A stretch of 51,318 nucleotides of DNA from an uncultured Bacteroidales bacterium (GTDB taxonomy: Bacteria; Bacteroidota; Bacteroidia; Bacteroidales; Marinilabiliaceae): positions 1-51,318 of the forward strand of contig CAKVCS010000001.1 in assembly GCA_934725785.1 (NCBI GenBank), given 5' to 3'. Below the pieces are notes generated by a model. The model did not search any database. It was not told the origin of the DNA and was given only the letters and a program-made list of their open reading frames with translations. Below are positions 9,147 to 43,955 of the stretch, piece by piece. The position numbers and the translations under genes are program-made. The number at the start of each line of letters is the position of its first letter. Position 1 is the first letter of the stretch.

Positions 9147-9204
9147 AAGTAGAACCTGCGTAGCTTCGCTTTCGTAAAAAGAATCATATCATAACCAGCA
9201 GCCG

Positions 9205-26786: not shown

Positions 26787-26991
26787 ATGCGTGGCGTCTT
26801 TTTGTGGTGGGGAGGGAGGCGTAGCGCCCCGTCACGCAAATATAGCGTCTTTTCCGCCCGAATGGAATGCCGCGGCAGCCGTTTGCCGCGTCTTCTTCGG
26901 CGGCGCGCCCGTTTTTCCCCCGCGGCGGCGTCGGGGCGGGGTGATCCGCCGCGGGGTGACCTGCGGGCGCGATGCAGCCGCCTGTGAAAGA

Positions 26992-27022
26992 TTTTGATAG
27001 TGTTTTTTTTTGTATACTTTCG
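26992..27022 (+). promoter_or_regulatory. Bacteroides-type promoter for the island operon (TTTG - GTG T9 spacer - TACTTTCG)
   Basis: TTTTGATAGTGTTTTTTTTTGTATACTTTCG, with TTTG at 26993-26996 and a -7-like box at 27015-22 (one mismatch to TAnnTTTG). Confidence 0.4.
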
Positions 27023-27102
27023 TGAAATATAATTTAACGCCACAGGGTGTCGCCAGGTGGCTACGTGTGAGAGGAAAATAAAGGAAGAAGATAATTAGTG
27101 CC

Positions 27103-27960
27103 ATGGAGGCAAACAGCGGTATAAAATGCACATTCTCTGGTCATGAAACTTTTACCTGTAAGTCAATATGGCTGAAGAAAGGCTATGACTTTGTAAAGGA
27201 TGGTCACTCTTTTAGCGATGAGGAGGCTGTGGTTGTTTTGGGAGTGGGCAAGAATATGGTGAGTTCCATAAGGTATTGGCTCCGCGCTTTTGGGCTCATA
27301 AATCAAAGCGGCGAGTTATTGCCTCTGGCCGACTTCATTTTTGACACCGAAACAGGGCGTGACCCGTTTGTGGAAGATGTGCAGACCCTGTGGCTGTTGC
27401 ATTGGAACTTGATATACAGCAACTACGCCAGTCTCTACAGATATGTTTTCCTAAACTTTCACAAAGAGCGCAAGATGTTCAATAAAGAGAACATCTTCAA
27501 ATTTTTGAGACGCAAGAATGACGAAAAGCCATTCGGCGGGGGCGTTTGGAACGATAATACTATAAGCAAGGACATAGCGATGCTTCTCCGTATGTACGTT
27601 TCTCCAAACGGCAGCCAGAACGATGACTATTGCGCTACGTTGATCGATCTGAATTTGATTAGGAGGGTTGGCAAGGACTCTTATGAGTTCAATTATCCCG
27701 CAAAAGCAAAAATCAGCCCGTTGACATTTCTCTATGCTGTCAACAAAATTTCAAACGGCAGCCAAGTAGTCGAATTTGACAAGCTTTTGGAGCTTGCTCT
27801 TATATTTTGTTTGTCGCAGGGCGAGCTGTATGACATATTCAGCCGGCTTACGGAAATCAATCCAAACATTTCATTTGTCAACTCCGCAGGGGAGCAGTTG
27901 TTCGCCGTCAAACAGGATTTCAACGGGTTTGACATTCTCGACATGTATTATAAATCGTGA
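27103..27960 (+). CDS. DUF4007-like protein (SspB-like candidate)
   Basis: N-terminal FSGHETFTCKSIWLKKGYDFV matches my recollection of the DUF4007 N-terminal motif (GHETF...WLxKGY). 285 aa. First gene of the island. Confidence 0.55.
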   Translation: MEANSGIKCTFSGHETFTCKSIWLKKGYDFVKDGHSFSDEEAVVVLGVGKNMVSSIRYWLRAFGLINQSGELLPLADFIFDTETGRDPFVEDVQTLWLLHWNLIYSNYASLYRYVFLNFHKERKMFNKENIFKFLRRKNDEKPFGGGVWNDNTISKDIAMLLRMYVSPNGSQNDDYCATLIDLNLIRRVGKDSYEFNYPAKAKISPLTFLYAVNKISNGSQVVEFDKLLELALIFCLSQGELYDIFSRLTEINPNISFVNSAGEQLFAVKQDFNGFDILDMYYKS

Positions 27961-30900
27961 TGACGATGAAGTTCTCAACATCTGTAAACATTGAGCGAGA
28001 CTGCGGCAAGGGGTTTGATTACGTTGTTACAGCCAATGCGAAACAGGCAATTGGCAAAATTGTTAATCAGTTCTCTGTTGGAATCCATTCTTTCTGTTTG
28101 ATTGGCTCCTACGGAACGGGCAAGTCGAGTTTCCTGCTGGCTTTAGAGCAATGTATGCTATGCTCTCGGCCTTTACCGAGCCAACTTATGACCAACAAAG
28201 GGCAGTTCAATGGATTTACCAAGTTCCGATTCATTAACATAGTTGGCGATTATACTCCGCTGGGAGGATTGCTTGATGCGCACTTACGGCATGAAAAGTT
28301 TCAAGGAGGCAATTTTTTCGAGACGCTTGACGGCCTTTACGCCGAATGCCAAAAAGACGACACATTCCTTGTTTTCGTAGTTGACGAATTCGGCAAGGTG
28401 CTTGAATACGCCGCCAAAAATAATCCGGAAAAGGAAATGTACTTTTTGCAGAAATTCTGCGAATATGTCAATGACACAGATAAGAATATCCTTTTCCTTG
28501 CTACTCTCCACCAAGCTTTTAGCGCATACGCTAAAGATTTAAGGCTTGAGCAAAAGCAGGAGTGGGCGAAAGTAAAAGGCCGCATCGCCGACATCGTTTT
28601 TAAGGAGCCTGTCGAGCAGTTGCTAAATCTCGCTGCGACTAAAATCTCGCGGGAGAGGGGGGGGGCGCGGAGTGTGGCCTGTAGACAGCTTTATGAGTTG
28701 GCACTCACGTCCAGGTTCATCAATGATAGCCTCAAGTCTGATGTCGCGCTGGCTCTGTACCCTATGGATATTTTTGCCGCATACGCTCTAACGGAGGCCA
28801 ATCAGCGTTACGGGCAGAATGAGAGAAGTCTGTTTACTTTCTTAGAATCGAGGGGCGAAGGCTCTATCTCTGACTTTTCACCATCTGGCAATACCCTTTT
28901 CAGCCTCGTCAATGTTTATGACTATGTACGTTACAATTTTTATTCATCATTGACCGAGGTAAATGCCGATTCTTCCAAGTGGTCGGCAATTCTTACTGCA
29001 ATTGAGCGTATAGAGGGGCTTCCCCTTGCGGAGGAGGAGGTAAAAACGGCTGTCTCAATTGTCAAGGTTATCGGGATGCTCAACATTTTTGCTTCTTCGG
29101 CGACAAAAATTGATTCCGATTTCCTTGCGTCATATGCCCGGCTTTCGTTGGGAATTAAGGACGTTCTGCCTTTGCTGGGCAAGTTGCAAAGGGCGCAGAT
29201 TGTCCGTTTTGCGAAATATAAATCGAAATATATACTGTTTGAGGGTACTGATGTCGACATTGAGTTTGGGCTTTATATTGCTTCGCTCGAGTGTAAACGT
29301 TCCGATGACTATGTCGACAAACTGAGGCGGTTTTTCCCTCACCACATTCGCCTCGCGAATGCCCATTTATACCGGACCGGAACGCCCCGATATTTCGAGT
29401 ACCAGATATCGGGCGAACCCGTCAACAAGTCGCCTCATGGTGAGACTGACGGCATTGTCAACCTTATCTTTACAAGGGAGGACGAGTTGCCAGCAATCAA
29501 AGCCAGATGCCTTTCAGTCAAAGGTATGGCTGTCGTTTATTGCATTTTTCGAAATGCGCCGGAGGTGACTGACCATGTTTACAACATAGAGAAATTGCAT
29601 TGGGTAAGGGATTATTTCGTCAAGGATGAAAACGACAAGGTGGCGAATAATGAGATAGAAAGCCTTGTTGAATACGAAGAGTCACTGCTGAGCAAGTCAA
29701 TATTCGACAGTCTCTATTCTGACAAGGTCATGTGGGTTTTCAACGGTGAACCCGTTGACGGAATACATTCCCACAAGGACTTGATGAAGTTCATTTCCTT
29801 AGTTTCCGACCGGGTTTACTATTCAACGCCTGTTTTCAGAAATGAGTTGATAAACAGACAACGCCCGAGCGGGACAATGTCGGTTGCACGGCAGAATTAC
29901 CTGAACGCTTTGCTGGAAAACTCCGATAAGCCTGACATCGGATTTGACAAGGGCAAATTTCCGCCGGAAAAGTCAATATATCTCACAATGTTGAGAAGCA
30001 CAGGGATTCACGTCCCTGCGGGCGACTCGTTCACTTTTTGCGAACCATCAGAGCCGTCTTTCAAGGAGCTGTGGAAATGTTGCATGGAGTTTATCAAGTC
30101 AGCCCGGCAGAAGCGGAGAAAAATCAGTGAGCTTGTCACTTTGCTTTCACAAGCTCCGTTCGGAATGAAGAAAGGTTTTATCGATTGGTGGGTTCCGTCT
30201 TTTCTCATAATTAAGAAAAATGATTTTGCGCTCTATAGTGGAGATGCTTATGTGCCGTTCATAAATAAAGATGTTCTTGGTCTGCTCTATCGCAACCCTA
30301 ATGACATATCTGTGAAGTCTTTCAGTGTAGAGGGCGTGAAGCAGGTGTTTTTTCAAAAATATAGGGAGGCTGTGAATCTGGGGAAGTCTGAATTGAACTC
30401 TAATTCATTCGTAGAGACAATTCGTCCTATCTTAACATTCTACAGGCACTTGAACCCTTATGCCCAAAACACAAGAGATATTCCTACCGAGGCCAGGAAA
30501 TTTCGTGACGTCATTTCGCGAGCAACGGATCCCGAGGTGACATTCTTCGATCAGCTGCCCGAAGCCTTGGGTTTCCGACAGGATGTCATGGTGCGCAACC
30601 CGGAGTCGGTTGATAGTTTTGTCTCTGTTTTGCAAAATGCGATCAGGAGTCTGAGGGGCTGTTACGATGATTTTGTTCGCTCGATTGAACGCCATATCCT
30701 CAATGCGCTCAAGGTCAATGAGAATGAGTTTCCCGCATACAAGCCCATTGTCGATGGTCGGTATAAGTCTGTCAAGGCGGAATTGATGCCCAACGATGTA
30801 AGGACTTTCCACTTGCGACTGACCGGAAGCTATGACAATTATAAAGAGTGGGTCGAGTCGATATCCTATGCGGTTCTCAACAAGCCCCTTGAGAAAATCA

Positions 30901-31178
30901 AGGATGCGGAGAAGACGTTCTTGCTCACTTCGTTGACAGACAAACTTTTCCAGCTCGATGATTATGTAGAGATGCACAAAACTGACAACGAGTCTATTGT
31001 CCGTCTGCATATTACTCAAAATAGAGGAGCGGCAATAGCGAAACAAGTGGTTATCCCGAGCCATAACATCAAAGAGGTTGACCGGTTGGAGAAACGGATT
31101 GAAGATGTGCTCTCATCCGACAACGCCATCAATATGGCAGCTCTTATCAATATGATAAAAAGAAAGTGTAATGGATAA
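27957..31178 (+). CDS. large P-loop NTPase, 1073 aa (SspC-like candidate)
   Basis: Walker A GSYGTGKSS (28104-28130) and Walker B-like FLVFVVDEFGK. The start is GTG 27957 or ATG 27960, overlapping the upstream stop. Confidence 0.6.
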   Translation: MMTMKFSTSVNIERDCGKGFDYVVTANAKQAIGKIVNQFSVGIHSFCLIGSYGTGKSSFLLALEQCMLCSRPLPSQLMTNKGQFNGFTKFRFINIVGDYTPLGGLLDAHLRHEKFQGGNFFETLDGLYAECQKDDTFLVFVVDEFGKVLEYAAKNNPEKEMYFLQKFCEYVNDTDKNILFLATLHQAFSAYAKDLRLEQKQEWAKVKGRIADIVFKEPVEQLLNLAATKISRERGGARSVACRQLYELALTSRFINDSLKSDVALALYPMDIFAAYALTEANQRYGQNERSLFTFLESRGEGSISDFSPSGNTLFSLVNVYDYVRYNFYSSLTEVNADSSKWSAILTAIERIEGLPLAEEEVKTAVSIVKVIGMLNIFASSATKIDSDFLASYARLSLGIKDVLPLLGKLQRAQIVRFAKYKSKYILFEGTDVDIEFGLYIASLECKRSDDYVDKLRRFFPHHIRLANAHLYRTGTPRYFEYQISGEPVNKSPHGETDGIVNLIFTREDELPAIKARCLSVKGMAVVYCIFRNAPEVTDHVYNIEKLHWVRDYFVKDENDKVANNEIESLVEYEESLLSKSIFDSLYSDKVMWVFNGEPVDGIHSHKDLMKFISLVSDRVYYSTPVFRNELINRQRPSGTMSVARQNYLNALLENSDKPDIGFDKGKFPPEKSIYLTMLRSTGIHVPAGDSFTFCEPSEPSFKELWKCCMEFIKSARQKRRKISELVTLLSQAPFGMKKGFIDWWVPSFLIIKKNDFALYSGDAYVPFINKDVLGLLYRNPNDISVKSFSVEGVKQVFFQKYREAVNLGKSELNSNSFVETIRPILTFYRHLNPYAQNTRDIPTEARKFRDVISRATDPEVTFFDQLPEALGFRQDVMVRNPESVDSFVSVLQNAIRSLRGCYDDFVRSIERHILNALKVNENEFPAYKPIVDGRYKSVKAELMPNDVRTFHLRLTGSYDNYKEWVESISYAVLNKPLEKIKDAEKTFLLTSLTDKLFQLDDYVEMHKTDNESIVRLHITQNRGAAIAKQVVIPSHNIKEVDRLEKRIEDVLSSDNAINMAALINMIKRKCNG

Positions 31179-32277
31179 GGTAAGGCATGTGCTGGGAATC
31201 TCCGGAGGCAAGGACAGTGCGGCGTTGGCAATATATTTGAAAGACAAATATCCGGCGCTCGGCATAGACTTCTACACTTGTGACACGAAATGCGAATTGG
31301 CGGAAACAGAGCAACTCGTTGAGAGATTGCGTTCTTATTTGGGTAGGATTACGACGCTCCAAGCTGCCAAGGGAAGTCCGGAACCTACGCCTTTCGACCA
31401 TTTCCTGAAGATTAATGGCGGTTTTCTGCCTTCTGTTCAGCAGAGGTGGTGCACACAGAAAATGAAACTTGCGGAGTTCGAAAAGTATGTAGGCGACGAT
31501 CCCGTGGTCTCCTATGTCGGCATACGTGGCGATGAGGACCGAGATGGCTATGTCTCCTCAAAACCTAATATTCAGTCAGTTTTCCCGTTCCGCAGGAACA
31601 TATGGAGCATCGATGTCATAAACAAGGTCTTGAGCAACGATAACATTAGCAAGTTCAGCGAATGCTATCGCTCCGTTGCCGATACCCGGACTTTTGATGA
31701 GGCCAACAAGGTCCTCACCGCCAAGCTTACAAAGGATTTCTTCTACTCTAAGAAGCTCAATGCGTTGCTCGATATTGACATAAGGGCCTTTAATCACGCC
31801 ACTTTCTGCTTCCTTAAGGAATATACCGATTACCCCGTCGGCAGGTTGGATAATTTCCCTCTGCTTGACAATGAGGATGTCCTCTGTAAAGAGGACATTT
31901 TCAGGATATTGGAGGATAGCGGGGTCGGCGTCCCCGCCTATTACAAACTCATAGATTTTGAGGTGGACGGCAAGACGGGGAAATATTGCCGTAGCCGCTC
32001 AGGATGCTATTTCTGCTTTTTTCAGCAGAAGATTGAGTGGGTTTGGCTCTACGAGCAGCATCCCGACCTGTTTAAGAAAGCGATGGAATATGAAAAAGGC
32101 GGCTACTCTTGGATTCAAGACGAACCTCTTGAAAAACTGATCAGGCCTGAGCGTATACGCCAAATTAAGCTTGACCACATCAAGAAGACCGCGGTTCTCG
32201 AGTCAAAGAACAGAAGCAAGTTACTCATCGACCTGTTCGATGACGACGATGTCAACTGCGCCAATTGCTTTATTTAG
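31171..32277 (+). CDS. PP-loop ATP pyrophosphatase of the PAPS-reductase/DndC/SspD family
   Basis: SGGKDS PP-loop at 31201-31218, QQRWCTQKMK, and the Cys cluster CRSRSGCYFC. There is an 8-nt overlap with the upstream gene. Confidence 0.75.
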   Translation: MDKVRHVLGISGGKDSAALAIYLKDKYPALGIDFYTCDTKCELAETEQLVERLRSYLGRITTLQAAKGSPEPTPFDHFLKINGGFLPSVQQRWCTQKMKLAEFEKYVGDDPVVSYVGIRGDEDRDGYVSSKPNIQSVFPFRRNIWSIDVINKVLSNDNISKFSECYRSVADTRTFDEANKVLTAKLTKDFFYSKKLNALLDIDIRAFNHATFCFLKEYTDYPVGRLDNFPLLDNEDVLCKEDIFRILEDSGVGVPAYYKLIDFEVDGKTGKYCRSRSGCYFCFFQQKIEWVWLYEQHPDLFKKAMEYEKGGYSWIQDEPLEKLIRPERIRQIKLDHIKKTAVLESKNRSKLLIDLFDDDDVNCANCFI

Positions 32278-34554
32278 ATGCTGAAGGGGGTAGAGTTTCC
32301 ATCTCATCGACGTTTTAAGTCGCGGACGGAGTGGGAGCCAATAGGTTTCTTCTCCGACTGCCTCTGTAATGCGACCCAGTTCAACCTGATGCTCGGTTTC
32401 TTTTCCTCATCCGCCATAAACGTACTCGCCGACGGCTTCGCTTTCTTCATCTCCAATGGGGGCCGTATGAATCTGGTTATAAACGACATCCTAACTCAGC
32501 AAGACAAAAATGCCATAGCCGTCGGTGAGTATGCCAAGCCCATCCCTTTTTTTGACATACACGACGTCGAAAGGTTGAAAGCGACGCTGTCCGTGCGGGA
32601 CTCGCATTTTTTCGATTGCATAGCGTGGCTCATACGCAATAATCGTATTGACATAAAGATTGTCGCGCCAAAGGGCGGGGTGGGGATTTCTCACACCAAG
32701 ATGGGTGTTTTCTGTGATGGTGCGAACAAAGTGGGTTTTGACGGATCTTGTAATTTCTCGCGGTCGGCATTGGTGGACAATATCGAGAGTCTCACGGTGT
32801 GCTGCGATTGGGACGGTAACACTGCATCCGCAACCATAGACAGGCTGAGCGATGAGTTCGATCTTGTCTTCTCAGGCAATGATGATAGTGTTGTTTTTGT
32901 GCCCACCGATAAGGTTAAGACCAGTGTCACCGAGTTGTTTAAGGACAAGACTATAGACGAATTGCTTGAAGACGAATACAAATTGATTAAGCACGACTGT
33001 GCAAAATCTGCGCTGCCAGACTCGGTGATAAAGGCTCTGGCAAAAGCCAAGATGAAGATAGAGACCGCGATAGAGATGGGCAAATCAAAGTACGAAGTAC
33101 AGAACGTCGAGTCGATAGGCCTTGTTAAGCCTTGTTTCCCCTATGCGTCCGGCCCTCGCGAATACCAAAAGCAGGCATTCCTGAATTGGAAGAACAATAA
33201 GCAGAAAGGCTTGTTCGCGATGGCGACTGGCACGGGTAAAACCATTACTTCACTAAATTGCCTTCTCGAGATATACAAGAGGTTAGGTTATTACAAAGCT
33301 ATCATTCTTGTACCGACAATAGCGCTTCTTGACCAATGGGAAGCCGAATGCCGTAAGTTTAATTTCCGGACGGTTATAAAAGTTTGCTCCAAGGCCAGTG
33401 ATTGGAAATCGCAGGTAGCGCATATACGTCTGCTCGAAATGACGAACCCCGACAACGATTTATCATACGTTGTTATATCAACATATGCGTCATACGTAAG
33501 GTCTAATGTCTTTAACGAGCTGAACCATTTTACAAAAAACAAGCTCCTGTTGATAGCCGATGAGTGTCATAATATGGGTGGCGGGTTGATGGCTCAGCGC
33601 ATGCAAGACATTAAATATGTGCGCCGCATAGGTCTCTCGGCAACGCCCGATAGGCAGTCTGATGATGTCGGCAACCGCAAGCTTATGGATTTCTTCGGAT
33701 GTGACGGCGGTTACACTTTCGAGTACTCTATGGCCGATGCCATACAGAACGGTGCTTTGTGCCGTTACTACTATTATCCGCACGTAGTTCGACTGACAGA
33801 GAGTGAGATGTCCGACTACGTCGAGCTTTCAAAGGCGATAGTCAAACTCCTTGGGATCAAAGATGACACAGGTCAGGACCGCCTTAAAATGCTAATGCTG
33901 AAACGTAAACGCATAATACATAAGGCGGCCAACAAGCTGCCCATTTTTCAGCAAATAATCGAGCAAAGAATCAAGGAGAAAGGGAATCTGAAATACGCTT
34001 TGGTCTACGTGCCCGAGGGAGACAGGCCTGACAATTACGAGGCTGAAATATCAGATTTGGATGATTCGGGTTGCTCTGATCACGATACAGAGCATCTCAT
34101 TGACGATTTCACTCGGATTGTGCGCGATATTGATTCTCATATTACAGTCCGTAAGTTCACGTCTGTTTCTTCCGACAGAGACGCAATGCTGAAGGATTTC
34201 GCCTCCGGCGCAATCGATGTACTTGTATCAATGAAGTGTTTAGACGAGGGTGTTGACGTCCCGCGAAGTGAGTTGGCCATATTTTGCGCAAGTACGGGAA
34301 ACCCGCGGCAGTTCATACAGCGTCGCGGCCGTGTGCTAAGAACTCATAAAGATAAGCGCTTCGCCGTCATTCACGACCTCGTCGTTGTGCCCGACAATGT
34401 TTTCAATCATGATTGCTATGCTTATGAGAAAAATTTGGTTCAAGCCGAGTTGAGCCGAGTGCGTGATTTTGCGTTGCTCTCAGAGAACATTACCGATACG
34501 GTCAATGAATTGTCCGATGTGTTGCGGCGTTACAATTTGTCCATATTTGAATAG
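32278..34554 (+). CDS. PLD-family (HKD) nuclease domain fused to an SF2 DEAD/DEAH-type helicase
   Basis: HKD-like SHTKMGVFCDG...GSCNFSRSAL (HTK at 32692-32700). Helicase motif I is MATGTGKT (33220-33243), motif II is DECH (33559-33570), motif III is SATP, and motif VI is QRRGRVLR. Confidence 0.8.
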   Translation: MLKGVEFPSHRRFKSRTEWEPIGFFSDCLCNATQFNLMLGFFSSSAINVLADGFAFFISNGGRMNLVINDILTQQDKNAIAVGEYAKPIPFFDIHDVERLKATLSVRDSHFFDCIAWLIRNNRIDIKIVAPKGGVGISHTKMGVFCDGANKVGFDGSCNFSRSALVDNIESLTVCCDWDGNTASATIDRLSDEFDLVFSGNDDSVVFVPTDKVKTSVTELFKDKTIDELLEDEYKLIKHDCAKSALPDSVIKALAKAKMKIETAIEMGKSKYEVQNVESIGLVKPCFPYASGPREYQKQAFLNWKNNKQKGLFAMATGTGKTITSLNCLLEIYKRLGYYKAIILVPTIALLDQWEAECRKFNFRTVIKVCSKASDWKSQVAHIRLLEMTNPDNDLSYVVISTYASYVRSNVFNELNHFTKNKLLLIADECHNMGGGLMAQRMQDIKYVRRIGLSATPDRQSDDVGNRKLMDFFGCDGGYTFEYSMADAIQNGALCRYYYYPHVVRLTESEMSDYVELSKAIVKLLGIKDDTGQDRLKMLMLKRKRIIHKAANKLPIFQQIIEQRIKEKGNLKYALVYVPEGDRPDNYEAEISDLDDSGCSDHDTEHLIDDFTRIVRDIDSHITVRKFTSVSSDRDAMLKDFASGAIDVLVSMKCLDEGVDVPRSELAIFCASTGNPRQFIQRRGRVLRTHKDKRFAVIHDLVVVPDNVFNHDCYAYEKNLVQAELSRVRDFALLSENITDTVNELSDVLRRYNLSIFE

Positions 34555-34560
34555 TGCTAT

Positions 34561-34794
34561 ATGAGTGTGTATCAAACCAAAGATGATAGAATGTTGCAAG
34601 CCGTCATATCAGACGAGCGACTTGTCAACTACTATGGCTACAATCCTAATGACTTCACGTCTATGTCTGACGCCTTAAATTCCGATGTGGTTATAGTTCA
34701 GGCTATTGCCAAAATCATCGATAAATCTGGTCAAGGGTGCAGCGTCACGGAAATTTATAATGAGGTAAGAGATTTGCTAACGGCGAAGATATGA
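34561..34794 (+). CDS. 77-aa hypothetical protein
   Basis: Shares the island's AT-rich composition. Its stop overlaps the next start (ATGA at 34791-34794), which suggests translational coupling. I recognised no motif. Confidence 0.5.
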   Translation: MSVYQTKDDRMLQAVISDERLVNYYGYNPNDFTSMSDALNSDVVIVQAIAKIIDKSGQGCSVTEIYNEVRDLLTAKI

Positions 34795-36965
34795 TTTTAA
34801 AAGAGCTGAAAATAAAAAACTTCCGAAGCTACTATGGCTATAATACCCTTTTATTTTCCAAGGGGCTGACGCTTGTTATTGGCGACAATGGAGATGGGAA
34901 AACAACGTTGTTCGAGGCTTTGGAGTGGTTGTTCAATACAACTGGTGCCCCCCAAAAAGAATCAAACATCTCCGAAATGCGAAAGTCTGAGTTGGAAATT
35001 GGGGAAAGTGATGAGGTATCTGTCTCCTTAAGCTTTGAGCATGACGGACATAAAGAAGTTGAAAAGTCTTTTACTTTCGAGAGGGAGTTAGGCGGCAATA
35101 TTAGCCTTAGGGACTATAAGTTCGTCGGATATTGTATTGATGGCGTTGAACGTTCTCGTACCGAGGGTGCCAAGCTTTTGGACAGATGTTTTGAGCCTGT
35201 AATCCGCACATACTGTTTGTTCAAGGGAGAGAATAAGCTCAACGTTTTTGAAACCCCTGACGCCCTTAAGACATTGGTTGAGACATTCTCAGGTATAAAA
35301 GACTTTGATAAAAAGGTTGACCTTACAAAAAGTTTTGAGGAGAAAGCTGCCAATGTGGTCAGCAAAGCTCTGCAAAACGACAATAAAGTGTCGAAGCAGA
35401 CGAAAGAGCTTACCGATAGAAGAACAGCTCTTTTAAACGAGATACAAGAAATTAAAATTGAGTTAAAAGAAAAGAGAAAGTCAATCGACTGGTATTCTTC
35501 CAAATTGCAGGAATTGGAAAGTAATCAGGACCTCTCAGAGCGCTATCAGCACTTGAAGGTTCGCATAAAAGGATTAGAAGATAAACGTGCTGGTTTAGCC
35601 AAACATGTGAAATGCGACTACAATGCAAAATTATTGGACGAATCATGGATCCTGCGTTCCTTTCCATCTGTCATGAGCGACTTCTCTGCAAAAGTCTCTG
35701 CGTTGAGCAAGGCGAAGAGGAGACTTGATAAGCAAGAGACAGAAAGGCGTGCTATGGCCGATGGCAAGCGTGAGGCTTACACGCAAATTCAGAAACTTGT
35801 AAATGATACAGTCCCACTGCCTTGGAACTTGCCAGACGAACAAACGATGAAGGAGATGATTGACGATGAGGTTTGTAAGGTTTGCGGACGGCCTGCGCCT
35901 AAAGGCTCTGAACCATATGAGTTTATGCGCCATAAACTGCAGGACTATCTTGACCACGTAAAGGCAGAGGCGAATAAGAAATCAAATGATTCTCAAGAGG
36001 AAGAGAAACCTCTGTTCGTCAATTCATTCATTGATGAGTTGCATTCTTTACAAATCAAATTTAGTGGAGACGAGGAGATTGCGGTCGCAAACACAGCAAG
36101 GAAAATTAGTGAGGAGTTAGAGTTCATAAACGCAAGAAAACTTCAGTATAATGAAGTCGATACGCAGCTGAACGATTTGGAAACAGAGGCAAACAACATG
36201 ATATTGCAGTCAGGATTAAGTGATGAACTGTTGTCGAAGAATTTTTCGGATTTAATAGGTTTTTTTGACTCTAAGAGTCATGCGGAAAGGCGCATGACGG
36301 AGTTGGAGGCAGAACTTAAGTCCAAGGAGGAGGAAGTCGAGCGAGTTAAGGAAGCATTGTCACAACTTGAGCCAGAAAGTACTATGACCCAGGTATTGCA
36401 ACGTGTTCATCAAGCTTTTGAAAATATTAGCAAGGCCTTCGAAAATGCCAAAACTCAGAACATTAACAAGTTCCTGCAGATGCTCGAGTCCAAATCAAAT
36501 GAGTATCTTCAAAAATTGAATGAAGGAGACTTCTATGGGGTAATCCATATCTGGAAGTCTATGGGAGACTCTGCGCATATAGAGCTTTGCAGTAAAAATG
36601 GAACACGCATTGAGAACCCCAATGGTGCGCTTAAGACGACAATGTACATGTCTGTCCTCTTCGCGATTTCTGAAATTACAACATTGAAAAGGGAGAAGGA
36701 CTATCCTCTAATCTTTGATGCGCCTACCTCTTCTTTCGGCAGTTTTAATAAGGAGCGTTTCTACAATGTCATCGACTCTATCGACAAGCAGTGCGTTATA
36801 TTCACAAAGGACTTGCTCAATGTAGATAAAGAGACAGGACTGAAAGAGGTTGACTGCCAGACAATCGATAAACTCTCTTGCCCCGTCCTGCGCATCGAGA
36901 AGGTTCTGCCGTTCAACGATAAGGATTTGTCTACTGTTCGAACTGTCATAAAGATAATAAGGTAA
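34791..36965 (+). CDS. SMC/Rad50/DndD-like ABC ATPase with a central CxxC hook
   Basis: N-terminal LKIKNFRSY...VIGDNGDGKTT (Walker A at 34881-34907), long coiled-coil arms, CKVCGRP at residues 362-368 of 724 (35874-35894), and a C-terminal Walker B YPLIFDAPTSSF. Confidence 0.75.
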   Translation: MILKELKIKNFRSYYGYNTLLFSKGLTLVIGDNGDGKTTLFEALEWLFNTTGAPQKESNISEMRKSELEIGESDEVSVSLSFEHDGHKEVEKSFTFERELGGNISLRDYKFVGYCIDGVERSRTEGAKLLDRCFEPVIRTYCLFKGENKLNVFETPDALKTLVETFSGIKDFDKKVDLTKSFEEKAANVVSKALQNDNKVSKQTKELTDRRTALLNEIQEIKIELKEKRKSIDWYSSKLQELESNQDLSERYQHLKVRIKGLEDKRAGLAKHVKCDYNAKLLDESWILRSFPSVMSDFSAKVSALSKAKRRLDKQETERRAMADGKREAYTQIQKLVNDTVPLPWNLPDEQTMKEMIDDEVCKVCGRPAPKGSEPYEFMRHKLQDYLDHVKAEANKKSNDSQEEEKPLFVNSFIDELHSLQIKFSGDEEIAVANTARKISEELEFINARKLQYNEVDTQLNDLETEANNMILQSGLSDELLSKNFSDLIGFFDSKSHAERRMTELEAELKSKEEEVERVKEALSQLEPESTMTQVLQRVHQAFENISKAFENAKTQNINKFLQMLESKSNEYLQKLNEGDFYGVIHIWKSMGDSAHIELCSKNGTRIENPNGALKTTMYMSVLFAISEITTLKREKDYPLIFDAPTSSFGSFNKERFYNVIDSIDKQCVIFTKDLLNVDKETGLKEVDCQTIDKLSCPVLRIEKVLPFNDKDLSTVRTVIKIIR

Positions 36966-36970
36966 CCAAT

Positions 36971-37489
36971 ATGTCCGATAGTTTATTCGATTTGTGGGCC
37001 AGGAGAGACCCGCAGTGGGAGAAAAGGTATGAGGATAACATAGTCAAGAAATTCTGCGACTATGGCCGAGGGGCCACCTCTTTGCGCGAGGATAGGGGTA
37101 AGCTCTTTGGCTCTGGATATGAAATATACATTGTTGCATTTTTCATTGGCTTGTATAACAACCAGAGGCGACAGCTTGTCGATGATGCAAAAAAGCGTAA
37201 GAGTTTTGGACACCCAATTCAAAATTGGGGGAATATAACTGCTTCAGTTGCGAATGGCAGGAAACCTTACCCCAAACTGCGTAAGTTTATTTTCATAGCT
37301 CTCATAGCTCGTGCCGACATTGATTTCATCGCACTTGAAGAAGGCGATATTAAGCCAGCCAAGGCTGTCGATATGTTAGTACAGCTGATGGAGGAATACG
37401 CCAATTGGGGCTTCCATTTTATTGAGGATAAGATGGAGGACGACGCAAATTATTTTTTCGTGAAACTGCTTTCCTCGAAGTCTTTTTAG
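36971..37489 (+). CDS. 172-aa hypothetical protein (last island gene)
   Basis: Island-like composition, 5 nt after the preceding stop. Notable segments are GYEIYIVAFFIGLY and MEEYANWGFHF. I could not assign a family with confidence. Confidence 0.5.
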   Translation: MSDSLFDLWARRDPQWEKRYEDNIVKKFCDYGRGATSLREDRGKLFGSGYEIYIVAFFIGLYNNQRRQLVDDAKKRKSFGHPIQNWGNITASVANGRKPYPKLRKFIFIALIARADIDFIALEEGDIKPAKAVDMLVQLMEEYANWGFHFIEDKMEDDANYFFVKLLSSKSF

Positions 37490-37606
37490 GTTTTGACGCA
37501 CCAGACGGCAAAAGAACGGATGACGGTGAGCCCGAATCGTTAGACTGAGAGGATGATTAAGCTGCTCATCTCGTTACATATAATCTCGTAGCATTCTAAA
37601 AACCAC

Positions 37607-37644
37607 GAAGCCGGGCGGCGAGGACACTCTCGCCGCCCGGCTTC
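37607..37644 (-). terminator. rho-independent terminator of tRNA-Leu (possibly bidirectional, also closing the island operon)
   Basis: Perfect 16-bp stem GAAGCCGGGCGGCGAG / CTCGCCGCCCGGCTTC with a 6-nt loop. The minus strand continues GTGGTTTTTAG. Confidence 0.75.
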
Positions 37645-37655
37645 TTCAGTTCCCG

Positions 37656-37737
37656 TACCCTGACCCGGGATCGAACCGGGACGGATCGCTCCATTGGTGT
37701 TTGAGACCAACGCGTCTACCAATTCCGCCATCAGGGC
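37656..37737 (-). tRNA. tRNA-Leu (anticodon CAA)
   Basis: The reverse complement folds by hand: acceptor GCCCTGA/TCAGGGT, D-arm GCG-GAATTGGTAGA-CGC, anticodon stem TTGGT/ACCAA with loop CTCAAAC, long variable arm TGGAGCGATCCGT, T-arm CCCGG-TTCGATC-CCGGG, discriminator A. No encoded CCA. Confidence 0.9.
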
Positions 37738-37792
37738 CTTACGTGACGCGAATATAGCAAAAAATCCGCTCACGCCAAACAAATGTGGGTCA

Positions 37793-38902
37793 TCACACGG
37801 CCGCCCGGCCTCCCGCCTGCGAACCCGCGTTATTGCTCAGGCGGTAGTCCCCGGGCGTCATCCCCTCATACGTGTAGAAAGCGCGCCGGAAAGTAATCAG
37901 GCTGTTAAAACCCGACATCGTCGCCACCACGTCAAGCTTGTGGCTCGTCTCGCGCAGCAGGCCCTTGGCGTGTTCCGTACGCCTGCGGTTCACGTAGTCG
38001 TAAAACGTCGTCCCCAGAGTGTTGTTCAGGTAGCGGCTCACGTACGTGCGGTTTGTGCCCAGCCGCTTGCTAAGCTCCGCTATGTTAAGCTCCTTGTCCA
38101 GGTATATGTGCTCCTTGTTAAACAGACGGACGAAGTCCGCCTCGAATCCGTACTTGGCACCCTTGATGCCGCTCTTGTTGTTCCTCATGTCAGATGATTC
38201 TTGTTCGTCATCGCCGTCCTCGCGGGCCTCGCTCACCACGTCCGCCACCTCCTGCCTGTACACGCAGAAGGCCAGAGCGAAAAGCACGGCGCTTATGCTT
38301 ATGTTATATATCACGTCTATCAGCGGAGAGTCCGCCACGCTCGCCATCGTCCACGTCACCAGTATCCCCAGGCAGCACCACACTATCCGCTTCAGCCACC
38401 GCAGGTCGACACCCTCCGTGTTGCTCAGGTTCTCTCGCAGCAGGCGGTCGAAACGCCTCACGGCGGCCGCCGTGTATATCACCGTCCCCAGGCCGTAGGC
38501 CACCGCAAGGCACATCGACACCGTGTAGAGCGTCTCGCTCCGAGTCGCCACGTAGGCGCACAAAACAGCGAAAAACGGGGCGGCGTTCATCGCCAGCAGG
38601 CGATAGCCGCTGTGCCGCGGGTGTGTCAGCTCATACATCAAGGCCGCCGCAAACGGCAGGACTGTCGTCTGGTACAGGTTCACGGTCTCCGTCTCGTGGC
38701 TGCCTATCATGTCCACCACGAAATACTGGACGAAGAGTATCAGGTTCATCAAGCTCAGGTGGGCGAAGAGGACGACGCCGGCGCGGTGGAGTACCGCCTT
38801 GTCGCGTCTCGCCGATAATATCGCGAGGCTCACCAGTGGTATGCAGAAGTTCATTCCAGCCGAGAAGTCTTTAAAAGACTCTACCGTAGCGATGGTTGTC
38901 AT
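37793..38902 (-). CDS. membrane-anchored AraC-family transcriptional regulator
   Basis: Multiple N-terminal TM segments. The C-terminal AraC HTH reads LNIAELSKRLGTNRTYVSRYL ... ATMSGFNSLITFRRAFYTYEGMTPGDYR. Confidence 0.8.
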   Translation of the reverse strand: MTTIATVESFKDFSAGMNFCIPLVSLAILSARRDKAVLHRAGVVLFAHLSLMNLILFVQYFVVDMIGSHETETVNLYQTTVLPFAAALMYELTHPRHSGYRLLAMNAAPFFAVLCAYVATRSETLYTVSMCLAVAYGLGTVIYTAAAVRRFDRLLRENLSNTEGVDLRWLKRIVWCCLGILVTWTMASVADSPLIDVIYNISISAVLFALAFCVYRQEVADVVSEAREDGDDEQESSDMRNNKSGIKGAKYGFEADFVRLFNKEHIYLDKELNIAELSKRLGTNRTYVSRYLNNTLGTTFYDYVNRRRTEHAKGLLRETSHKLDVVATMSGFNSLITFRRAFYTYEGMTPGDYRLSNNAGSQAGGRAAV

Positions 38903-39620
38903 GCTGTGCTTGCTTTAGCGAGTGTTAAGGCCCGGCCGCCAATATGCGCCGTCGGTCGCCGCCGTGTCTCATGGCGGCGCAGGTGGGGGTGCCCGCCTGT
39001 GCGGGGTATTTACGAGAAATGCGGCTCTCGGGTTTCCTGCCCAAGCTGATTGTTGACGCCGAGGACCCATTGCCGCCCCGAGTCCGGCTCGGGGGCGATG
39101 CCCCTGTTGGCGGACGCTCTTCGCCGTGCGCCGCGTTGTCGCTCGTCTCCCCGTCTTTCATCGTATGTATCGTCGCGTTAATTACTGTTGCTTGCATCAA
39201 ATCGTATGCAAAGTGAGCTAAAAGCCGCGACAAATCGGGGGTCTTGGCCTCTCCTTGTTGCTTCAATCGGTACAAAATGACGCTTTTTTACGCATTGATT
39301 TTATTAACGACCCCCTTGCGCCTTATATGTTGTTAACAATCAGGACATCCTGACGCTCCTGCACCTGCCTTCCTCCAGCCACCCGGCGTCATTGCCTTGG
39401 TTATTCAGTCCGGCATCTGCGACTCCGCCGTGCCATCCTCCGCCTTGGTTTCCGCTTCTTGTCAATTTCGCCTGCGGTCGCTGCCTTGCCGTCGCGCCTT
39501 TTGTCAGTGCGGCTTATTCCTGACATGCCGTGTTCCGAATGGCGCGGTTGTCGCCATTTGCCGCCATGTCTTCGCTCCGTCTCATGCCGTCTCTCTCCGG
39601 GGTGCGGCGGGGGTGGGGAC

Positions 39621-39658
39621 AAAAAAGTCAAGCCCCGACGTTGCCGACGGGGCTTGAC
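39621..39658 (-). terminator. rho-independent terminator of the frdCAB operon
   Basis: Stem GTCAAGCCCCG / CGGGGCTTGAC (39627-39658), followed on the minus strand by TTTTTTG. Confidence 0.75.
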
Positions 39659-39684
39659 TCCACATATGGTTAGTCCGCTCTCGC

Positions 39685-40440
39685 TTAGTCTTTCAGCTTA
39701 GCCTTGAGGAACTCGCGGTTCAGCCGCGCGATGTTCGCGATCGAGACGCCCTTCGGGCACTCGGCCTCGCAAGCGCCGGTGTTCGTGCAGTTGCCGAAGC
39801 CCAGCTCGTCCATCTTTGCCACCATCGCCTTGGCGCGGCGCGCGGCCTCCACGCGGCCCTGGGGCAGCAGCGCGAACTGGCTCACCTTGGCCGAGACGAA
39901 CAGCATGGCCGAACCGTTCTTGCAGGCGGCTGCGCAAGCTCCGCAGCCTATGCACTGGGCGGCGTCCATAGCCTTGTCCGCATCCTCCTTGGCAATGGGC
40001 AGGGCGTTGGCGTCCTGCGCTGCGCCGCAACGAATCGAGGTGTAGCCGCCAGCCTGCATGATCTTGTCATAGGCCGAGCGGTCCACCATCAGGTCGCGGA
40101 TCACGGGGAAGCCCGCCGAGCGCCACGGCTCTATCGTTATCGTGTCGCCGTCCTTGAATGTGCGCATGTGCAGCTGGCAGGTCGTCGTCTTGGCGTTAAC
40201 GCCGTGAGGGTGGCCGTTGATGTAGAGCGAGCACATGCCGCATATGCCCTCGCGGCAGTCGTGGTCGAACACGACTGGCTCCTCATGCTTGGCCACGAGC
40301 TTCTCGTTCAGCGTGTCAAGCATCTCGAGGAACGACATGTTGACCGAGATGCCCGGCATGTCGTATGTCTCGAAATGGCCCTTCTCCTTAGGTCCTCTCT
40401 GACGCCAGACCTTAAGCGTTATATTGATAGTCTTATCCAT
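39685..40440 (-). CDS. frdB: fumarate reductase/succinate dehydrogenase iron-sulfur subunit
   Basis: Cys clusters [20 protein letters not shown] and [12 protein letters not shown]; 251 aa. Confidence 0.9.
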
Positions 40441-40463
40441 GAAAATCGAATACTGTTACCGGG

Positions 40464-42410
40464 TTAGTTCTTGTAGTTGCGGGTCTTGCGCTCAGTCTCC
40501 TCATACACGAGGTCCTCCTTCAGCATCTCGGGGTCCTGGTCCTCGCCCATGTAGTGCCAGCAAGCCGCGTAGCTGAACTTGTCATCGTGGCGCAGCGCCT
40601 CGCCATCCTCCGTCTGGTGCTCCTCGCGGAAGTGGCCGCCGCAGCTCTCCTCGCGGTTGAGCGCGTCGATGGCGATAAGGTAGCCGATGTCGATGAAGTC
40701 CGACAGGCGCAGGGCCTTCTCGAGCTCCGTGTTAAGGTCGTCTGCCTTGCCCGGCACGTAGACGTTCGTCCAGAACTCTTTCTTGATGTCCTTGAGCATG
40801 CCGAGGGCCTTCGTCAAGCCCTCCTTCGTGCGGCCCATGCCGACGTACTCCCACATTATGTGGCCCAGTTTCTTGTGGATGGTGTCGACGCTCTCCTCTC
40901 CCTGGATGGCCATGATCTTGGCTATCTTCTCGCGGACGCCCTTCTCGGCCTCGTCAAACTCCGGGGCCGTGGTCGGGATGCGGGCCACCTGGATCTGGTC
41001 GGCCAGGTAGTTCTGGATCGTGTATGGCAACACGAAGTAGCCGTCGGCCAGGCCCTGCATCAGGGCCGAAGCGCCAAGGCGGTTCGCGCCGTGATCCGAG
41101 AAGTTAGCCTCGCCAAGGCAGAACAGGCCGGGGATGGAGGTCTGCAGCTCATAGTCAACCCAGATGCCGCCCATCGTGTAGTGGATGGCGGGGAAGATCA
41201 TCATCGGGGTCTTATACGGGTCCTGAGCCATGATCTTCTCATACATCTCGAACAGGTTGCCGTAACGCTCCCTCACGCGGTCCTCGCCCAGTCGCTGGAT
41301 GGCGTACTTGAAGTCGAGGAACACGGCCAGGCCCGTCTCGTTGACGCCATAGCCGGCGTCGCAACGCTCCTTGGCAGCGCGGCTCGCCACGTCGCGAGGC
41401 ACCAGGTTGCCGAACGCCGGGTAGCGGCGCTCCAGGTAGAAGTCGCGATCCTCGTCGGGGATGTCGTTCGCCGTCTTCTTGCCTGCGCGGATGGCCTCGG
41501 CGTCCTCCTTCTTCTTCGGGACCCATATGCGGCCGTCGTTACGGAGCGACTCCGACATCAGCGTCAGCTTCGACTGGATGTCGCCGTGCACGGGTATGCA
41601 CGTCGGGTGGATCTGGCAGTAGCACGGGTTTGCGAAGTACGCGCCCTTGCGGTATATCTGCATGGCGGCCGAGCCGTTCGACCCCATGGCGTTGGTCGAG
41701 AGGAAGTACGTGTTGCCGTAGCCGCCCGTGGCTATGACTACGGCGTGCCCGAAGTAACGCTCTATCTCGCCCGTGATGAGGTTCCTCACGATGATGCCCC
41801 TCGCGCGGCCCTCTATGATCACCACGTCAAGCATCTCGCGGCGGGCGAACATCTTGACCGTCCCGTTCTTAATCTCTTTCGAGAGAGAGGAGTACGCGCC
41901 GAGCAGAAGCTGCTGGCCGGTCTGGCCGCGGGCGTAGAACGTGCGGCTTACCTGGGCGCCGCCGAAAGAGCGGTTCGCAAGCAGTCCGCCATACTCGCGG
42001 GCGAAGGGCACGCCCTGGGCCACGCACTGGTCTATGATGTTGTTAGACACCTCCGCCAGGCGGTACACGTTCGCCTCGCGGGCGCGGTAGTCGCCACCCT
42101 TTATCGTGTCGTAGAACAGGCGGTAAACCGAGTCGCCGTCGTTCTGGTAGTTCTTGGCGGCGTTGATACCACCCTGAGCTGCGATAGAGTGAGCGCGGCG
42201 GGGGCTGTCCTGGATGCAGAAGTTCAAGACGTTGAAGCCCATCTCGCCAAGCGTCGAGGCCGCCGAGGCCCCTGCGAGGCCGGTGCCTACCACGATGATG
42301 TCAAGCTTGCGCTTGTTCGCGGGGTTCACCAGTTTCTGGTGAGCCTTATAGTTTGTCCACTTCTGAGCCAACGGCCCCTGCGGGATCTTGGAGTCTATAG
42401 TGTTTGCCAT
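40464..42410 (-). CDS. frdA: fumarate reductase/succinate dehydrogenase flavoprotein subunit
   Basis: FAD-binding [28 protein letters not shown], and HYTMGG. The start is set at ATG 42408-42410 ([12 protein letters not shown]). Confidence 0.9.
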
Positions 42411-42503
42411 GTTATTCTTCAGCAATAAATTCGAATGGTTGTATTATCATGTGCCTGGCCGGCCATCCGTCTGAGCCGGCCGCGCTTTGACGGTTTGTCC
42501 GGA

Positions 42504-43241
42504 CTACATGCACGGCACGCCTGGCGTGGCGATGGCGACAGCCGTGGGGAACAGGGGGAATACGTGGAGCGCATAGCCAAGCACGACAATCGCGAAGCCC
42601 GCGCAAACTATCGTGGCGTACCATACGGCGACGGTCTTCCACCTCGAAAGCCAAATCTCGTTGTTCCATCCGAGTGTCTGCAGCATGCTCCAGAACCCGT
42701 GGGTCAGGTGCAACCATATGGCCACAATCCAGACAACGTAGGCGAGGGCTACCGGCCACTGGCTGAAGTAGTATGCGATGAAGCGGGCGCCCTCGGTGGG
42801 CTTTATTATGCCCATCTCGCCTCCGTCAAACTCGCAGCCGCGCAGCTCGGCGAGCATCATGTGGCTCCAGAACTGGTGCAGGTGCAGGGCTATGCCGAGC
42901 AGGACGATGATGCCAAGGACAAGCATGTTCTGGCTCGACCACTCAACGCCTTTCGGCGCGTCGACAACGGCGTAGCGGTCGTTACCGCGGGCGCGGCGGT
43001 TCTGCACGGTCAGGATGAACGCGTAGACTATGTGCACCAGGAAACCGATGGCGAGCACGGCCGTGCCGGCCAAGGCGTACCAGTTCGTGCCGAGGAACTC
43101 GCACACCGCGTCATATGCGCCGTCCGAGAACGCGGCCACAAGGTTCATGCTCATGTGGAAAAGAAGGAAGAGCACGAGCAATATGCCCGATACGCTCATT
43201 ATCAACTTCTTCCCAATGGACGATTGGAAAATACAGCTCAT
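42504..43241 (-). CDS. frdC: fumarate reductase/succinate dehydrogenase cytochrome b subunit (Bacteroides type)
   Basis: SSIGKKLIMSVSGILLVLFLLFHMSMNL. Five-TM pattern. First gene of the C-A-B order. Confidence 0.85.
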   Translation of the reverse strand: MSCIFQSSIGKKLIMSVSGILLVLFLLFHMSMNLVAAFSDGAYDAVCEFLGTNWYALAGTAVLAIGFLVHIVYAFILTVQNRRARGNDRYAVVDAPKGVEWSSQNMLVLGIIVLLGIALHLHQFWSHMMLAELRGCEFDGGEMGIIKPTEGARFIAYYFSQWPVALAYVVWIVAIWLHLTHGFWSMLQTLGWNNEIWLSRWKTVAVWYATIVCAGFAIVVLGYALHVFPLFPTAVAIATPGVPCM

Positions 43242-43955
43242 AAATGAATGTTTGTAATTATGTGAATTTTATAGGTTTGCTGAGTGCTTGTTTGCCGAAA
43301 GGAGGCTTCGCGCGGTTCTGTCCGCGCTTTCCCTTCACAAAAATAAGATAAGGCGTCGAATGCCGACCCCCAATTAAAGAAAAATTTCTTTATTTAAAGT
43401 CGGTCAAATTTAGCCCTCCCTCCAGGCTCCTGCTTCACGCCCTCCGTCCTGCGCCCCGCCCCCCCCCTGCTCCCGGACCAATCCCCGCCCCGCGCTTGCC
43501 GAGCCTCCTGTTCCCTCTTTTGCCGCCCCCCCCTGTCCGTCGCGGCCATCTCATGCCAGCCTCCCCCTCCTTAGTCTTTGGTTGCGTTCACCGCGTCCGT
43601 GGCTGGATGCCGCGCCGGAATCACATAAGCCATTGTCAGCTAATTTATTTTGCGATTTCAACAAAAATATTTTTCAAAACATCGCCAAAATAATTTGTCA
43701 TTTCAATTTATCAACCTACCTTTGCATTGTCAACGGAACAAGATGACGACCTCGGGTCAAAGTCTTTCGCACTCCCATAACTGACTGACGGATACAGCTG
43801 GCCGCCTCTCTTACGCGGTGCGATGTAGGCTCTTCTCCCTCGATGCCCGTTTTGCTCTTTTGGCAAACCAATTCAATAATTCGAACAAAACATCAAATCA
43901 GCGCGGGGCGGTCTGTTTCCTCCGCCCAAAAGCGCTCTCAAACACATCAAATGAA

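Follow-up and report, generated by a model that had tools for sequence, protein, structure and literature searches.

The restriction branches recognized in reviews are dndFGH/sspFGH, sspE and pbeABCD, and it is the last of these that lies closest to the locus described here. In the published PbeABCD module, PbeA carries PLD, ResIII and helicase domains and PbeC is an ATPase, the two small proteins PbeB and PbeD having 66 and 152 aa (PMC6459918); the module has been re-annotated as an HKD-SF2 (superfamily 2 helicase) endoDNase, a small variable protein, a 'CxC' Zn-hook ABC ATPase and a cognate of DndE (Rakesh et al. 2024, PMC10853773), and its published partners are the canonical Dnd genes, cytosine methylases and MTaX1 (PMC10853773). 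The only Pbe system tested, an archaeal one linked to Dnd, needed phosphorothioate (PT) modification for defence, and deletion of the dnd genes was non-toxic yet abolished defence; PbeB, PbeC and PbeD were indispensable, weak residual protection was left after deletion of PbeA, viral DNA stayed intact on Southern blots with no detectable cleavage, and PT-modified virus escaped the defence (PMC6459918). Here we analysed a 51,318-nt stretch of the genome of an uncultured Bacteroidales bacterium of the Marinilabiliaceae (contig CAKVCS010000001.1, positions 1 to 51,318; hereafter the window), in which the gene at 32278-34554 on the forward strand encodes a PLD-helicase fusion. On balance, we read this protein as the nuclease-motor subunit, of the PbeA family, of a PbeABCD-type module that is fused with the SspBCD PT writer in one translationally coupled operon.

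The open reading frame (ORF) in question begins with ATG and encodes a protein of 758 aa. A sequence-only reading of the window had seen in it a single chain joining an N-terminal PLD-type nuclease domain to a complete SF2 helicase core, and all the motifs that it named are located in the protein: H139-T-K141 and GSCNFSRSAL at 156 in the first domain, and ATGTGKT at 316 (with the Walker A lysine at K321), DECH at 428, SAT at 454, LDEGVDVP at 655 and QRRGRVLR at 681 in the second. The PLD-helicase fusion is thereby confirmed and lies far beyond chance. The PADLOC PbeA model PDLC02706 is matched over its full length (profile positions 1-722 of 722, aligned with aa 11-752; 1053.6 bits), and four more PADLOC PbeA models match at 1.4e-177 to 1.1e-53. 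Beside this full-length match stand an intact HKD domain, an SF2 core and, downstream, a small protein, a Zn-hook ATPase and PbeD; the DndCDEA partner of the founding description is missing, the upstream genes being those for SspB, SspC and SspD. We regard membership of the PbeA family, within a PbeABCD module, as very likely. The family is large, with 8,630 clusters at 50% identity at E<=1e-3 and 1,583 at E<=1e-30, and many of these are full-length proteins of 730-760 aa.

The family named in the sequence-only reading, TIGR04095 (dnd_restrict_1, 'DNA phosphorothioation system restriction enzyme'), does exist and is the top NCBIfam match of PbeA (1.5e-116). The layout attributed to it, PLD plus helicase, is not that of the model, since the match (model positions 7-451 of 451) covers aa 291-754, the helicase half only, and leaves the PLD domain outside; moreover, the score of 390.1 bits falls under the curated cutoff of 600 and so short of equivalog membership. 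These scores split by partner, with 398-499 bits in five Ssp-linked relatives vs 545-605 bits in five Dnd-linked ones, and at 390 bits the window protein sits in a clade divergent from the Dnd-linked PbeA proteins. Of the other profile checks that the reading had proposed, ResIII (2.9e-26) and Helicase_C (4.5e-13) gave matches (Pfam also found DEAD), but PLDc_2 stayed below its cutoff, at 19.9 bits against a gathering score of 27 (21.8 bits when the N-terminal 291 aa were scanned alone). With PLDc_2 sub-threshold, the PLD assignment rests on an N-terminal-domain profile, on NF042964 and on the whole-chain structural match to SauUSI described below. NCBIfam NF042964 matches aa 11-197 at 7.9e-14, and the N-terminal-domain profile, compared with the PDB, finds single-HKD nucleases only, namely Zucchini/MitoPLD (6.7e-5), NucT (1.4e-3) and Nuc (0.6), in alignments that pass through the HxK...GSxN...NxE motif.

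Conservation of both active sites is strict. In an alignment of 40 family members at 29-75% identity, H139, K141, D147, S157, N159, N168 and E170 of the HKD domain are invariant, as are K321, D428, E429, H431, S454-T456 and Q681-R685 of the helicase. Among 59 full-length relatives from reference genomes, the histidine is kept in 58, the exception being masked DNA, and the lysine, N159 and E170 are each kept in all 59; in seven loci (L007-L013) the HKD motif is present in the alignment with S or A replacing G156, or with masked bases. This strict conservation argues for catalysis by PbeA, and the same argument has been made by Rakesh et al. (PMC10853773).

The AlphaFold2 (AF2) model, another of the checks proposed, has a mean predicted local distance difference test score (pLDDT) of 84.3 with a low-confidence linker at aa 270-282 after the nuclease domain, and its best Foldseek match is indeed a PLD-helicase restriction enzyme, the ATP-dependent type IV endonuclease SauUSI (PDB 7clg, E=1.2e-20, ~715 columns), followed by archaeal XPB/Rad25 translocases; no solved structure in the PDB comparison spans the whole of PbeA. 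SauUSI resembles PbeA in joining an N-terminal PLD nuclease to an SF2 helicase in one chain. It differs in having a C-terminal modified-base reader, in a chain of 953 aa against 758 aa at 14% identity, and in acting alone on modified DNA, whereas PbeA has no SRA-like reader domain and belongs to a multi-gene module beside a modification writer. By sequence, the helicase core is nearest to XPB (XPBII; PDB profile match at 8e-44), with the archaeal XPB/Rad25 structures 6p4f and 2fwr as the nearest solved cores (E ~1e-43), although PbeA lacks the N-terminal damage-recognition domain of XPB and stands in a defence context rather than one of repair. By analogy, this likeness suggests that PbeA is a double-stranded DNA translocase with a nuclease for a partner, in the way that XPB is paired with Bax1.

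The sequence-only reading had also placed the start of this gene directly against the stop of a gene for a protein resembling 3'-phosphoadenosine 5'-phosphosulfate (PAPS) reductase, and the junction indeed reads TTTAGATGCTG (TAGATG); the upstream gene is that for SspD. The coupling extends throughout the cassette (Table 1). The SspB stop overlaps the GTG start of the SspC gene, the SspC and SspD genes overlap by 8 nt, the PbeB stop overlaps the ATG of PbeC (ATATGA), and all seven genes overlap, abut or sit no more than 6 nt apart. Given these seven genes, the low-GC cassette is a SspBCD-PbeABCD operon; no DndC, DndD or DndE was found in it. Taking PbeA for a candidate effector by itself was incomplete, since the effector is a four-gene module of which PbeA is one subunit; the 77-aa ORF had been missed, and the ABC ATPase and the 172-aa gene had not been connected with it. 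What stands of the proposed modification-linked restriction component is the link, supported by the fusion and the SspD junction, and what does not is its self-containment, PbeA being accompanied by PbeB, PbeC and PbeD.

Table 1. Features of the low-GC cassette and its right edge in the window
Feature	Coordinates	Strand	Evidence
SspB (DUF4007), DNA-binding subunit of the PT-modification module	27103..27960	+	Pfam DUF4007 1.3e-73; PADLOC SspB 2.1e-82
SspC, large ATPase of the PT-modification module	27957..31178	+	PADLOC SspC PDLC02776, E=0, 1121 bits, aa 14-1049 vs profile 2-1038/1039
SspD, PAPS-reductase-like sulfur-transfer enzyme	31171..32277	+	PADLOC SspD 2.1e-85
PbeA N-terminal single-HKD PLD-family nuclease domain, aa 1-275	32278..33102	+	Conserved HKD residues; N-terminal-domain profile; NF042964
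PbeA SF2 (XPB/ResIII-like) helicase-translocase core, aa 285-758	33130..34554	+	ResIII; Helicase_C; TIGR04095; XPBII profile match
PbeB-like small protein, 77 aa	34561..34794	+	ORF list; junction ATATGA; position conserved
PbeC-like ABC ATPase, 724 aa, with coiled-coil insert	34791..36965	+	AAA_23 1.4e-19; SMC_N; PADLOC PbeC 1.1e-21
PbeD orthologue, 172 aa	36971..37489	+	hhalign to the small protein after PbeC in Dnd-linked loci
Terminator-like GC-rich hairpin between operon end and tRNA-Leu	37607..37644		16-pair stem, 13 GC pairs, scored on the minus strand
tRNA-Leu (CAA), right edge of the low-GC cassette	37655..37737	-	ARAGORN; GC profile

The downstream genes hold their places among relatives. 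The window's PbeC-like ATPase has its Walker A motif, GDNGDGKT, at 31-38 and a single mid-protein Cys pair, C362-K-V-C365; at 63 loci where an ATPase directly follows the helicase, such a pair is found in 61, as CxC in 39 and CxxC in 22, and both exceptions come from truncated contigs. A 49-91-aa ORF occupies the gap between helicase and ATPase in 55 of the 63 loci. The 77-aa protein itself matches no family, and relatives have a homologue of it at the equivalent place (phmmer 4e-22 to 2e-07); small and fast-evolving, it is conserved by position and poorly by sequence. The 172-aa protein, which has no Pfam or PADLOC match, aligns by hhalign with the small protein after PbeC in Dnd-linked loci at 98% probability (E=3.1e-13) and with its Firmicutes version at 91.6%. 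The window module has exactly the gene layout published for PbeABCD and can be compared with that of Haloterrigena jeotgali A29 (DndCDEA-PbeABCD), whose PbeA has the same PLD, ResIII and Helicase_C domains and is likewise followed by a small protein, a Zn-hook ABC ATPase and a small PbeD. It differs in being joined to SspBCD and not to DndCDEA or a methylase, in the hook of its ATPase, which is CxxC and not CxC, and in a PbeD that could not be linked to DndE.

Relatives of the helicase were collected in a scan of one genome per species, which confirmed 319, and the best 80 loci were searched with the window proteins, their neighbouring ORFs being clustered and the cluster representatives annotated. 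Within 10 kb, Ssp genes were found at 20 of the 80 loci (at 18 without and at 2 with Dnd genes), Dnd genes only at 25, an N4/N6 methylase only at 7, and no modification partner was seen at 28. The nearest full-length relatives (73-76% identity), from metagenome-assembled genomes of Bacteroidales, share the cassette order SspB-SspC-SspD-...-PbeA-77 aa-724 aa-190 aa, and at two loci (L005 and L006) the SspD stop abuts the PbeA ATG as it does in the window. In three loci of Paludibacteraceae (L001, at 7935-9996; L002; L003), two genes absent from the window lie between SspD and PbeA, one for a DUF262/GmrSD_N protein (362 aa, PADLOC NsnA 1e-25) and the other for a Ser/Thr kinase (322 aa, mad6 2e-31, PD-T4-6). 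Ssp-linked loci span Bacteroidota, several Firmicutes families, a Methanobrevibacter, Pseudoalteromonas and Alteromonas. In Firmicutes and Methanobrevibacter, at ten loci (L023, L028, L030-L032, L035, L041, L054, L077 and L082), the order is a 571-aa BrxP-like PAPS reductase carrying a 4Fe-4S domain, SspB, SspC, a cysteine desulfurase and PbeABCD; this is a second, distinct Ssp/BREX-type-4-like writer, predicted to be coupled to Pbe. On the helicase tree, which is a neighbour-joining tree without support values, the Ssp-linked helicases fall into at least 3 separate clades, each beside Dnd-linked relatives, and the methylase-linked ones form a clade of their own; partner type is clade-coherent. 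From such sequence patterns, functional coupling of the Pbe module to SspBCD appears likely.

How such a coupled system could work may be sketched as follows. SspBCD, with a cysteine desulfurase encoded elsewhere, would put PT marks on the host DNA, as its homology implies, and PbeC and PbeD would scan DNA, or loop it, and signal its PT status, in line with published proposals. PbeA would use ATP to translocate on double-stranded DNA, like XPB or the R subunits of type I and III enzymes, and two PbeA chains would join to build a composite PLD active site, where DNA without the host PT pattern would be nicked or cut, by analogy with SauUSI, Nuc and BfiI. These three PLD nucleases dimerise, and with one HKD motif per chain PbeA would have to pair with a second PbeA. 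Regulation of the module by PbeB is a speculative addition. Defence would require PT, and loss of sspBCD would abolish it without toxicity, following the only tested Pbe system; accordingly, the toxicity on deletion of the modification genes by which the sequence-only reading proposed to judge its idea is an unsound yardstick, the characterised Pbe being non-toxic without them even as defence is lost (PMC6459918). Since the archaeal Pbe showed no detectable cleavage and defended weakly without PbeA, cutting is the least secure step, and we put forward the proposed cutting mechanism of PbeA only tentatively, as somewhat short of probable.

Several points weigh against our reading. The Aravind laboratory argues (PMC10853773) that Pbe/CxC modules often function apart from PT writers and also occur as solitary units, and 28 of our 80 loci are without a seen modification partner. 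These 80 are the best matches to the window query, so that its own clade is over-represented and the Ssp fraction inflated, and the tree on which partner types were compared has no support values. The window as a whole has no gene for a cysteine desulfurase (SspA/IscS), and the PT writer must then draw on one located far away; iscS serves this purpose in other sspBCD systems (PMC8092258; PMC12914056). The nuclease domain falls below the PLDc_2 threshold. As a separate point, PbeA may not be the killing activity. Finally, the published view of PbeD as a DndE cognate was not reproduced for the window clade, which leaves the DNA-reading step uncertain. A DndE fold for the 172-aa protein was sought with Pfam at E<=10, by profile-profile comparison with canonical DndE, and by AF2 followed by Foldseek against the PDB, all of which gave no link: hhalign against canonical DndE reached 1% probability for the PbeD of the window clade and 17.7% (E=1.4e-3) for the Dnd-linked PbeD group, and the AF2 model (pLDDT 78.5) had its best PDB match at E=1.8.

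It could therefore be asked if Pbe and SspBCD are independent defence or epigenetic systems that share a defence island, with PbeABCD relying on its own sensing and not reading Ssp-made PT. Defence genes cluster generally, Pbe/CxC modules do occur without a PT writer (PMC10853773), as at the 28 loci with no seen partner and the 7 with a methylase only, and in four Bacteroidota loci (L009-L011 and L013) SspDCB is not fused but found on the opposite strand, several kb further downstream. Nevertheless, the SspD stop and the PbeA ATG abut in the window and in L005/L006, within a run of seven genes with overlaps or with gaps of no more than 6 nt, partner type follows the helicase phylogeny in at least 3 Ssp-linked clades, and defence by the Dnd-Pbe system that was tested depended on PT (PMC6459918); independence thus seems unlikely to us. 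A different doubt concerns the nuclease. Xiong et al. (2019) modelled a block of replication without cutting, in which PbeA would be a translocase or remodeller only, its PLD domain serving for binding or dimerisation, and the intact viral DNA on Southern blots, together with the weak protection left after PbeA deletion where PbeB, PbeC and PbeD were essential (PMC6459918), is what such a model predicts. It does not predict a full catalytic set of H, K, D, S, N, N and E that is invariant down to 29% identity, and SauUSI, the nearest solved architecture, is a bona fide endonuclease; moreover, nicks or heterogeneous cuts could evade a Southern blot, as the SspFGH authors argued for their own system (PMC8092258). 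We consider a PbeA that never cuts to be quite unlikely, a shade more so than independence of the two modules.

Abortive infection, proposed by Rakesh et al. (2024, PMC10853773), would have PbeB restrain PbeA until phage interference frees the nuclease onto the host DNA and kills the cell, and a PbeB that is kept by position (55 of 63 loci) and poorly by sequence fits that role. Discrimination of self from non-self is the simpler explanation for the tight link to a self-marking PT writer, and the escape of PT-modified virus in the archaeal system fits restriction better than suicide (PMC6459918), so that we take the suicide scheme to be improbable. There is least to be said for a housekeeping repair helicase of the XPB/Rad25 type or a SauUSI-like type IV enzyme acting on modified foreign DNA, both of which we consider very improbable, even though archaeal XPB provides the nearest solved helicase cores (8e-44) and SauUSI the top fold match. 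PbeA scores 52.9 bits against a cutoff of 610 with the NCBIfam XPB model (NF045503), its likeness to XPB being confined to the helicase core, and it lies in a low-GC cassette missing from related genomes; the sequence-only reading had made grouping with repair helicases a reason to abandon its idea, and such grouping was not observed. Only the first two domains of a type IV enzyme are matched, since the PbeA chain stops ~50 aa past motif VI, with helices only, and has no SRA-like reader, and an enzyme that attacks PT-DNA would turn against its own cell if it were transcribed together with a PT writer. Type I HsdR (TIGR00348, 56.7 bits against a cutoff of 284.55) and type III Res (PRK15483, 24.8 bits against 564) were likewise tried and rejected.

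Among described Ssp partners, SspE and SspFGH take the same place directly downstream of sspBCD as the Pbe module does in the window, presumably with the same PT-coupled defence role. Neither resembles PbeA: SspE combines DUF262 with DUF1524, SspF carries a Walker A motif and SspH resembles FtsK, none of them being homologous to PbeA (SspFGH described in PMC8092258), which bears out the statement in the sequence-only reading that this was not the partner described for Ssp systems. No model of SspE, SspF, SspG or SspH was among the top PADLOC matches of any cassette protein, and the window has no DUF262 homologue.

According to the 2021 SspFGH paper, 83.9% of sspBCD loci are without a known restriction partner, and further partners were predicted (PMC8092258). 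A recurrent, operon-fused Pbe module would give some of these orphan clusters a partner. If our reading is true, one restriction module, Pbe, can be re-paired with writers of different chemistry, namely double-strand Dnd, single-strand Ssp or methylases, and through this re-pairing it lends itself naturally to the question of how PT status is read. The locus also bears on the dispute of whether Pbe modules cut DNA, the HKD catalytic set being strictly conserved here. One could go further and envision a third coupled class of Ssp defence beside SspE and SspFGH, where a CxxC Zn-hook ATPase and a small subunit read single-strand PT and license a dimerising PLD-helicase, which would explain part of the ~84% orphan sspBCD loci and would have arisen at least 3 times by exchange of a Dnd for an Ssp writer; we offer this as a possibility that falls a little short of an even bet. 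In a literature search, no SspBCD-Pbe system was found described, though the original description of CxC systems (Krishnan et al. 2020) may mention the pairing. The coupling is thus apparently undescribed, though common in sequence databases and composed of two modules that are both already known. Current annotation misses the system, since the helicase carries just the name 'DEAD/DEAH box helicase' and scores under the TIGR04095 cutoff, and PbeD is mislabelled.

The mislabelling takes the form of the NCBI label 'glycoside hydrolase family 15' on five PbeD homologues (P0280, P0326, P0343, P0352 and P0373), which is implausible for a ~190-aa protein in such an operon; two homologues of the 172-aa PbeD carry PF27807. 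Public gene calls also differ between assemblies (L085 and L086), giving an SspB of 240 or 285 aa and an SspC of 996 or 1072 aa; the SspC start taken here is the GTG overlapping the SspB stop. Apart from the full-length proteins there are relatives of the helicase half only, of ~460-550 aa (corresponding to aa ~285-754 of the query), at L036, L039, L042, L045-L052, L056-L058, L060, L061, L074 and L081 and in Haloparvum (L043), for which no HKD domain and no upstream HKD ORF were found. The cyanobacterial ones adjoin genes for LexA and ornithine carbamoyltransferase.

The cassette (27103-37489) has a GC content of 45.1% between flanks of 60.2% and 57.4%, and in every host looked at the cassette GC lies below that of the flanks. 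The window comes from a metagenome or metagenome-assembled genome contig, and an FrdB protein encoded in its flank clusters at >=90% identity with proteins labelled Marinilabiliaceae and Bacteroidales. In related Bacteroidales genomes (L087-L090), a dCache_1 gene is the direct neighbour of the frdCAB operon, at a spacing of ~330 bp. In the window (compared stretch 26800-43409), the two are separated by the segment from 26.8 kb to 39.7 kb, which holds the cassette, the tRNA-Leu gene and an AraC-family gene, and the frd operon is inverted relative to those genomes (83% nucleotide identity). No integrase was found in the cassette, and no tRNA-derived att repeat at its left edge. A 15-nt imperfect direct repeat does occur in two copies near the cassette ends, at 27013-27027 (TATACTTTCGTGAAA) and 37451-37465 (TATTTTTTCGTGAAA); it is not tRNA-derived and is probably due to chance.

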